A DNA stretch of 62,076 nt, filler included, from Dugesia japonica (Eukaryota): the NCBI GenBank assembly GCA_001938525.1. It is 6 parts of 6 records of this genome, joined end to end, with 100 filler letters (N's around TTAATTAATTAA, not from the genome) between each part and the next. Parts side by side here need not be neighbours in the genome. Positions count along the whole stretch, not along the records: positions 53,245 to 62,076 come from MQRL01585766.1; 5 more parts are not named here. One strand, given 5' to 3'. Under the pieces are notes generated by a model. The model searched no databases. It was not told the origin of the DNA and was given only the letters and a program-made list of their open reading frames with translations. Position numbers and translations under genes: made by a program. This document shows, one piece after another, positions 56,013 to 56,464 of this stretch; position 1 is the stretch's first letter; the number at the start of each line of letters is the position of its first letter.

Positions 56013-56464
56013 ATGATAACGAATATTAATTACCGTGGTGAAGTGTCGCAAGAAGTAACAAAGAAAATGAGCTTTCCTATAGGTAACCATGTCAATTTAA
56101 AGTCAAAAGTGACAAATATACAATTATATTCTTCAGATCAGGAAAATGTAGAATAATAAGTTGTAAGAAACCATTGGAACTGCATGATTTGAATCCTTAT
56201 GATATAAAAAATTTACAAATACAATCACTATCAATTGTCGTAAATATGAGAGTTTCAATAAAATTGTATAAATTAGTAAGAATAGTCAACTGTTGGTTCG
56301 AACCAGAGTTATTCCCCGCTCTAAGACTAGTATAATATGACCCTTTATGTGTTAATGTGTTCTCAACAGGAAAACTAGTGATACTGGGGATTAAAAATTT
56401 GTATTTTCAAGGATATCTGAATAACATTACTTCAGATTTGTTTAATTTGTTTGAAAAAATTTAG
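56013..56464 (+). pseudogene. Divergent TATA-binding-protein (TBP)-fold gene inside the Polinton
   Basis: With one frameshift (~56085) and one stop (56333-56335), it reads MITNINYRG...YTIIFFRSGKCRIISCK...LQIQSLSIVVNMRVSIKLYKL...CWFEPELFPALRLV*YDPLCVNVFSTGKLVILGIK... This is collinear with TBP motifs LIFSSGKMVCTGAK, FKIQNMV...IRLEGL, YEPELFPGL and LIFVSGKVVLTGAK. Absent from the ORF track. Confidence 0.85.

Follow-up and report, generated by a model that had tools for sequence, protein, structure and literature searches.

Proteins with the TATA-binding protein (TBP) fold are encoded by cells and by several kinds of large DNA virus. Beta- and gamma-herpesviruses have TBP mimics (EBV BcRF1, KSHV ORF24 and HCMV UL87) that go with TATT late promoters, and the available portion of one account describes virion genes whose variant TATA box is served by a TBP-fold protein using host Pol II (PMC4893493). 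These mimics are large proteins that belong to a six-subunit viral complex. Giant viruses, asfarviruses and iridoviruses (Nucleocytoviricota) have TBPs of their own, and many of these viruses also have their own RNA polymerase. According to the available part of Ravarani 2020, Nucleocytoviricota TBPs, like those of most TBP-bearing double-stranded DNA viruses, mostly come with a viral TFIIB; the two C-lobe glutamates through which TBP contacts TFIIB are variable, being only ~40% conserved in viral TBPs, and the basic patch for TFIIA, TAF1, Mot1 and Brf is on N-lobe helix H2.

Polintons (Mavericks; adintoviruses, PMC8502044) carry pPolB, an rve integrase with a chromodomain, an A32 ATPase, an adenain protease, a double jelly-roll capsid and PLA2. 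Our literature search for a described TBP or promoter in these elements brought up only Starrett et al. 2021 (preprint and paper, PMC8502044), in which ‘TBP’ labels a gene in one MELD-virus figure legend; the available portion of the text holds nothing on a TBP gene, on how widely it occurs, on its residues or on a promoter, and that of one supplement contains no TBP, TATA, TFIID or PF00352. Subscription papers and Repbase lay outside the search. A 2026 PLV framework mentions neither TBP nor TATA, Ravarani 2020 has no Polinton, and a Cymbomonas mention concerns mirusvirus-like elements. The initial annotation of the locus described below knew of no Polinton TBP; the figure label qualifies that view, and we found nothing further in print.

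The window, meaning the whole 62,076-nt stretch of Dugesia japonica DNA that was analysed, joins six parts. The TBP-like gene and a packaging ATPase lie, as first described, within one spacer-bounded segment, a single scaffold (53245–62076) between 100-nt joining spacers.

56013..56464, plus strand: broken compact TBP-like gene of a Polinton family, assigned by the Pfam TBP match, identity to the intact homologue P0002 and the tree.

The frame had been read as ~150 codons with one frameshift and one stop, and alignment of its pieces to P0002 bears this out. From the ATG at 56013, the opening piece shares 22 of 24 residues with the start of P0002; the frame shifts near 56084–56087, and the second piece (56087–56461) is 74.4% identical to P0002 over 125 residues, with an in-frame stop at 56333–56335 and the terminal stop at 56462–56464. 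The TBP motifs quoted in the initial annotation are all present, every one of them in the second piece. With X placed at the stop, the frame scores 49.4 bits on the Pfam TBP profile (PF00352; cut-off 22.9), an E-value of 4.3e-13; on its own, the 82-amino-acid part free of breaks reaches E 1.7e-07. All 35 solved-structure matches of the frame are TBP-containing chains. This copy is itself dead and cannot make the full protein. A second remnant of the same family lies on another scaffold of the window (27388–27513, minus strand; 51% to P0002 over 43 residues), where no other Polinton gene matched beside it.

The Polinton genes around the TBP-like gene, all of them broken on this scaffold, and the repeats and candidate end on its other side are as follows.

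55287..55906, minus strand: A32-type packaging ATPase, broken by several stops and changes of frame (ATPase-cluster proteins as tblastn queries, up to 74%).
ATG at 55290, minus strand: small decayed ORF that overlaps the ATPase stop.
54919..55068, minus strand: remnant of the small basic gene (cluster 4) whose place in related elements is behind the ATPase (tblastn E 4e-08 and 1e-07).
54548..54691, minus strand: retroviral-type integrase remnant (65% identity to the L015 integrase).
53526..54433, minus strand: remnant of the cluster 6 gene, which separates integrase from major capsid (tblastn E 4e-11 and 5e-09).
53246..53434, minus strand: first 65 codons of the double jelly-roll major capsid (48% identity to the L008 capsid).
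57136..57466, no strand assigned: three imperfect 44-nt direct repeats (repeat family D18), with deep coverage by other copies.
57860..57869, minus strand: candidate element end named by the initial annotation, with an AG-rich start on this strand.

On the minus strand, the order of ATPase, small basic gene, integrase, minor-capsid-like gene and major capsid is that of related loci. In Pfam, members of the ATPase cluster match Pox_A32 and the integrase cluster matches rve and Chromo; an N gap (54694–54794) adjoins the integrase remnant. Cluster 6 had no match in a Pfam scan, and its position and size suggest a minor-capsid-like protein. A model of the L008 capsid matches the PBCV-1 capsid (Z 24.6, rmsd 3.2, 333 aligned). 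The scaffold edge at 53245 truncates the element within the capsid gene, and neither pPolB nor protease was found on the scaffold so cut; a pPolB remnant occurs on another scaffold (34487–35262, plus strand; 47% to the L008 pPolB; DNA_pol_B_2 E 8e-08). The TBP-like gene and the ATPase start divergently, at a distance previously put at ~90 bp, which is 89 nt for an ATPase start at 55924 or, likelier, 107 nt for a start at 55906.

The 44-nt repeats are possibly subterminal repeats of the element. As for the terminus proposed at 57869, the AG-rich candidate end is there in the sequence, but of the paired ends that a Polinton's terminal inverted repeats and 6-bp target duplication would mark, the window contains this one candidate and no partner, and a comparison of 57051–57900 with 82 loci gave no match. 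At 57476, 65 and 55 contigs of two runs depart from the window sequence. In each of two runs, ~13,000 contigs align to 54800–58020; because these are mostly 90–95% alike and most of them lack the stop of this copy, Dugesia japonica has many diverged copies. Between the TBP gene and the repeats is a low-copy stretch (56632–56883) with an exact match in one contig per run, and a decayed Cys-containing frame within 56620–56960 has no kin among the locus ORFs. At 80% likeness, 1161 and 130 reads from two poly(A) RNA runs align to this region. Most reads are <90% alike and run on into unlike sequence, mate direction does not change between the TBP and ATPase genes despite their opposite orientation, and neither start peaks nor end peaks appear in the two runs. 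The window also holds a broken LTR-retrotransposon (48267–52056, minus strand) with an rve integrase and, by eye, reverse-transcriptase-, protease- and zinc-knuckle-like frames, and exact duplications around N gaps (58029–58183 / 58410–58564 and 58286–58359 / 58667–58740) that are probably an assembly artefact.

Intact relatives place the gene among Polinton genes, a context that the initial annotation had proposed to check. From JGI metagenomes, 266 pattern matches yielded 125 confirmed ones, the best 80 of which were taken as loci; they are more distant from the window copy than its closest homologues, P0002–P0009. Their ORFs form clusters for the ATPase (27 loci), integrase (16), PLA2 (15), minor-capsid-like protein (15), major capsid (11), pPolB (8) and adenain protease (8). 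A core Polinton gene is present in 39/80 loci and in 26 of the 36 loci of at least 3 kb, the other 10 of which have recurring genes of the same sets. The ATPase is downstream of the TBP gene on the same strand in 25 of the 27 loci that have both, and in L007 the two are divergent, as in the window. The one locus from IMG/VR has a giant-virus TBP next to genes for ribonucleotide reductase and DNA polymerase, and neither the capsid nor the ATPase had relatives there; GTDB contributed one Polinton piece, likewise carrying a TBP gene. L082, a piece of a Polinton in which PLA2, TBP and ATPase occur together, is filed inside a Bacteroidota MAG and is most likely misbinned. Small genes often adjoin the TBP gene (L022:2756–3082 and clusters 3, 15, 16 and 20); cluster 3 resembles giant-virus proteins, with a weaker, below-bar likeness to single-stranded-DNA-binding proteins in Atlas. 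Accessory genes of TBP-bearing Polintons encode a ubiquitin-conjugating enzyme, RING fingers, leucine-rich repeat proteins and KilA-N, at the following sites.

L008:225–719, L051:1710–2168, L052:13315–13893, L012:1918–3327 and L074:606–1739: accessory genes.

The family is large. A protein search found 69 relatives among 146 candidates, most of them 145–165 amino acids long and intact. We also built a profile from 52 relatives and searched 1.84 billion representatives with it, using no word index; matches numbered 65 at 1e-30 and 833 at 1e-10, and the weaker ones include ordinary TBPs. Among the matches listed, the compact family has at least 150 representatives at 50% identity. The model of P0002 (pLDDT 95.4) has the TBP fold: its top 44 Foldseek matches are all TBP, and it aligns with human TBP (7egb_P) over 148 residues at Z 13.5 and rmsd 2.6. 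Like the TBPs of eukaryotes and archaea, the protein is a two-repeat saddle with three of the four kink phenylalanines and both TFIIB glutamates. Unlike them, it is ~150 amino acids long, lacks an N-terminal extension, is encoded by a mobile element and shares only ~20% identity with host TBP. It is a member of the TBP family but not a canonical TBP.

The differences lie in the first repeat and on the DNA face. The reference here is P0133, a TBP of plant type that came up in the search: nothing is missing from the second repeat, but the first falls short by 10 residues ahead of its phenylalanine and by 12 behind it, a shortening that the initial annotation had already noticed. The spacing in this repeat is 21 residues against 33, helix H1 is short, and the basic N-lobe helix H2 is missing, with no long helix between strands 45–51 and 66–78 of the P0002 model; a diverged N-lobe regulator surface is also a feature of Nucleocytoviricota TBPs. 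Three kink phenylalanines are kept in 52/52 relatives and the fourth is proline in 51/52, and both TFIIB-contacting glutamates are kept in all 52. The set from the search without a word index agrees for the glutamates (E97 130/146, E99 144/147), the phenylalanines (F41 127/127, F101 146/147, F117 143/143) and the DNA-face residues (P26 112/116, R47 123/128, M49 139/143, N115 139/144). Relative to P0133, the DNA-face changes are Phe to Pro, Val to Arg, Thr to Met, Leu to Asn and Val to Asn.

We compared the upstream regions of these elements after grouping 78 loci by 80% TBP identity, which gave 54 groups, with one 120-nt region per group and gene class; because the loci are kin, the resulting counts are not independent even after grouping. 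TATAAAC occurs in 74/226 regions (5.6 in shuffles) and CATAAAC in 38/226 (3.2 in shuffles), and the top 7-mer is ATAAACA (85/226). Together, as YATAAAC, the box precedes 82/96 genes of the packaging/capsid block, with a positional peak 30–40 nt before the ATG and a single reverse-strand match across all gene classes. By class, it stands before 21/22 ATPase genes, 14/16 small basic genes, 9/10 major capsid and 10/14 minor-capsid-like genes, 4/6 protease, 7/9 PLA2, 10/15 integrase and 1/2 pPolB genes, and before 5/5 leucine-rich repeat accessory genes. Clades that are ~40% identical have the same box. Before TBP genes it was found in 0/52, and in 0/43 after re-anchoring, an absence near chance (1.95 expected for 43 genes). 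These genes have a canonical TATA box in 20/43 cases (shuffle mean 5.3, maximum 12), as well as an enriched TGTTTTA (16/43) that is probably a 3′-end signal of the upstream gene. The small genes adjoining TBP mostly lack YATAAAC, as early genes would; ssDNA-binding-like neighbours (a weak Atlas lead) and cluster 11 have it in 3/32. Two divergent members of the family, L071:3210–3746, with a longer first repeat, and L081:1192–2100, a 303-amino-acid fusion with an unknown N-terminal part, lack the box before 4/4 genes checked and may pair with another promoter.

The window retains three boxes, where the chance of one is ~0.02 per 60-nt region; no YATAAAC precedes its TBP-like gene or its other gene remnants.

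55938..55944, minus strand: TATAAAC box, 38 nt before the ATPase ATG at 55906.
55334..55340, minus strand: TATAAAC box, 50 nt before the small decayed ORF.
53470..53476, minus strand: TATAAAC box, 42 nt before the major capsid ATG.

We think that the intact Polinton TBP probably binds TATAAAC and CATAAAC before the packaging and capsid genes and recruits host TFIIB and Pol II there. Host machinery would read the Polinton TBP gene early, through its ordinary TATA boxes. The rebuilt concave face of the product, with Arg, Met, Asn and Pro for Val, Thr, Leu and Phe, would then read C7 and C or T at position 1, favouring the C7 forms of the box (TATAAACA and CATAAACA) over TATAAAAG. Its kept EPELF loop would dock host TFIIB, and loss of the basic helix H2 from the first repeat would free it from control by Mot1, TAF1, TFIIA and Brf. 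Packaging and capsid genes would be switched on as a result, an early-to-late switch from one 150-residue protein that may be likened to the TATT system of herpesviruses. Binding, the TFIIB partner and the timing are what we infer here; the initial annotation had suggested that such a protein could redirect host Pol II to element promoters, and the YATAAAC box and the kept TFIIB glutamates now lend that role specific support. The box itself may be general to Polintons, as IMG/VR and GTDB provided no TBP-less Polinton for comparison.

It is possible, though unlikely, that host TBP reads YATAAAC as a weak TATA variant and that the Polinton protein serves as a decoy or repressor, soaking up TFIIB or blocking host promoters or its own early ones. 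In crystals, host TBP can accommodate a C(−25) TATA variant by Hoogsteen pairing (PDB 1qn3, PMC4402545). The TFIIB loop is also the best-kept surface of the compact protein, which has lost one kink phenylalanine, and the leucine implicated in host binding of the C(−25) variant stays I, V or L in the family. By promoter numbering, that variant would be TATAAAC. Against a decoy, the changed DNA-face residues are fixed across the family rather than drifting, and the box avoids the canonical forms that TBP genes themselves use (TATAAAA 3/96 and TATAAAG 1/96 before packaging/capsid-block genes).

We give a somewhat smaller chance to a reading in which another factor, a forkhead-type host protein or an element protein, recognizes the box and the TBP-fold protein acts elsewhere, for example in bending the DNA of termini or replication origins. 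The 7-mer ATAAACA presumably fits the forkhead consensus, no initiator signal was found at a fixed distance behind the box, and several element genes encode unassigned zinc-finger proteins. The box is nevertheless strictly on one strand and at a TATA-like distance, its first base is T or C, and the forkhead form GTAAACA precedes 1/96 packaging/capsid-block genes and reverse forms 0/96; the TFIIB glutamates, moreover, would then have no reason to persist.

Slightly more doubtful again is a late-gene activator that works with a viral TFIIB, its own or that of a helper virus, as giant-virus TBPs are thought to do. The prevalence of TFIIB genes in TBP-bearing viruses speaks for such a partner. No TFIIB matched in 40, 38 and 18 locus ORFs scanned (96 in total, from loci none of which is a complete element), and the glutamates are of host type and kept, in comparison with ~40% conservation in viruses that have their own TFIIB (Ravarani 2020, available in part). 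Unlike many Nucleocytoviricota, the TBP-bearing Polinton loci showed no RNA polymerase.

The compact Polinton TBP most likely works like the herpesvirus mimics, although it is no member of their late-initiation system: it is a bare 150-amino-acid core with a host-type TFIIB loop, its box is YATAAAC rather than TATT, its fold matches to the mimics are weak (BcRF1 E 4e-03), and no families of the five herpesvirus-type partner proteins occur among the neighbour ORFs scanned.

The descent of the gene was examined in a tree of 38 rows (LG+G4, no mixture model; L051 left out), in which the eukaryote, archaeon and giant-virus labels of outgroups were assigned from sequence and P0235 alone has a source name. 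All 23 compact rows fall on one side of a branch with 100/99 support. The compact clade stands apart from the eukaryotic and giant-virus rows in this tree, whose rows include no TRF2/TBPL1. Grouping the window copy with three eukaryotic TBPs was rejected by the AU test (p 4e-38). Among loci, with the window copy outside the comparison, TBP genes have a median dN/dS of 0.17 (range 0.05–0.42, 95 pairs), which indicates purifying selection; for ATPase genes the value is 0.07. Since it nests in a compact clade under purifying selection, the window gene is not a host pseudogene. A neutrally decayed host TBP or TRF2 copy lying beside a Polinton by chance has a negligible probability and is ruled out for TBP by the intact relatives, the dN/dS and the AU test: the copy is indeed broken, TRF2 is absent from the trees and TBP-like 1, a cluster in Atlas, has a feature score of 0.93, but identity is 74% to intact 150-residue relatives against ~20% to host TBP, and the family is under selection in a Polinton context. 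The intact family, its Polinton neighbours, the selection on it and its separate clade all favour the long-resident Polinton gene of the initial annotation over a host retrocopy.

The sequence at 56013–56464 is thus a dead copy of a live, widespread Polinton gene, and the value of the finding lies in the family. The status of Polintons as real viruses, and the way in which they would time capsid production in the animal nucleus, are open questions, for which a dedicated TBP, together with a matching box ahead of the genes for capsid and packaging, would offer a concrete, testable switch made of a small protein and a 7-base site. The compact TBP is also a natural experiment on a highly conserved eukaryotic protein, bearing on what is dispensable in it and on which residues alter the sequence that it reads. 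We see about an even chance that widespread animal Polintons run their own early-to-late programme with a single 150-residue TBP, re-tuned to YATAAAC, dependent on host TFIIB and stripped of its cell-control surface. It would be the smallest orthogonal TBP–promoter pair known, a solution separate from those of herpesviruses and giant viruses, and would be a sign of a true helper-free virus cycle.
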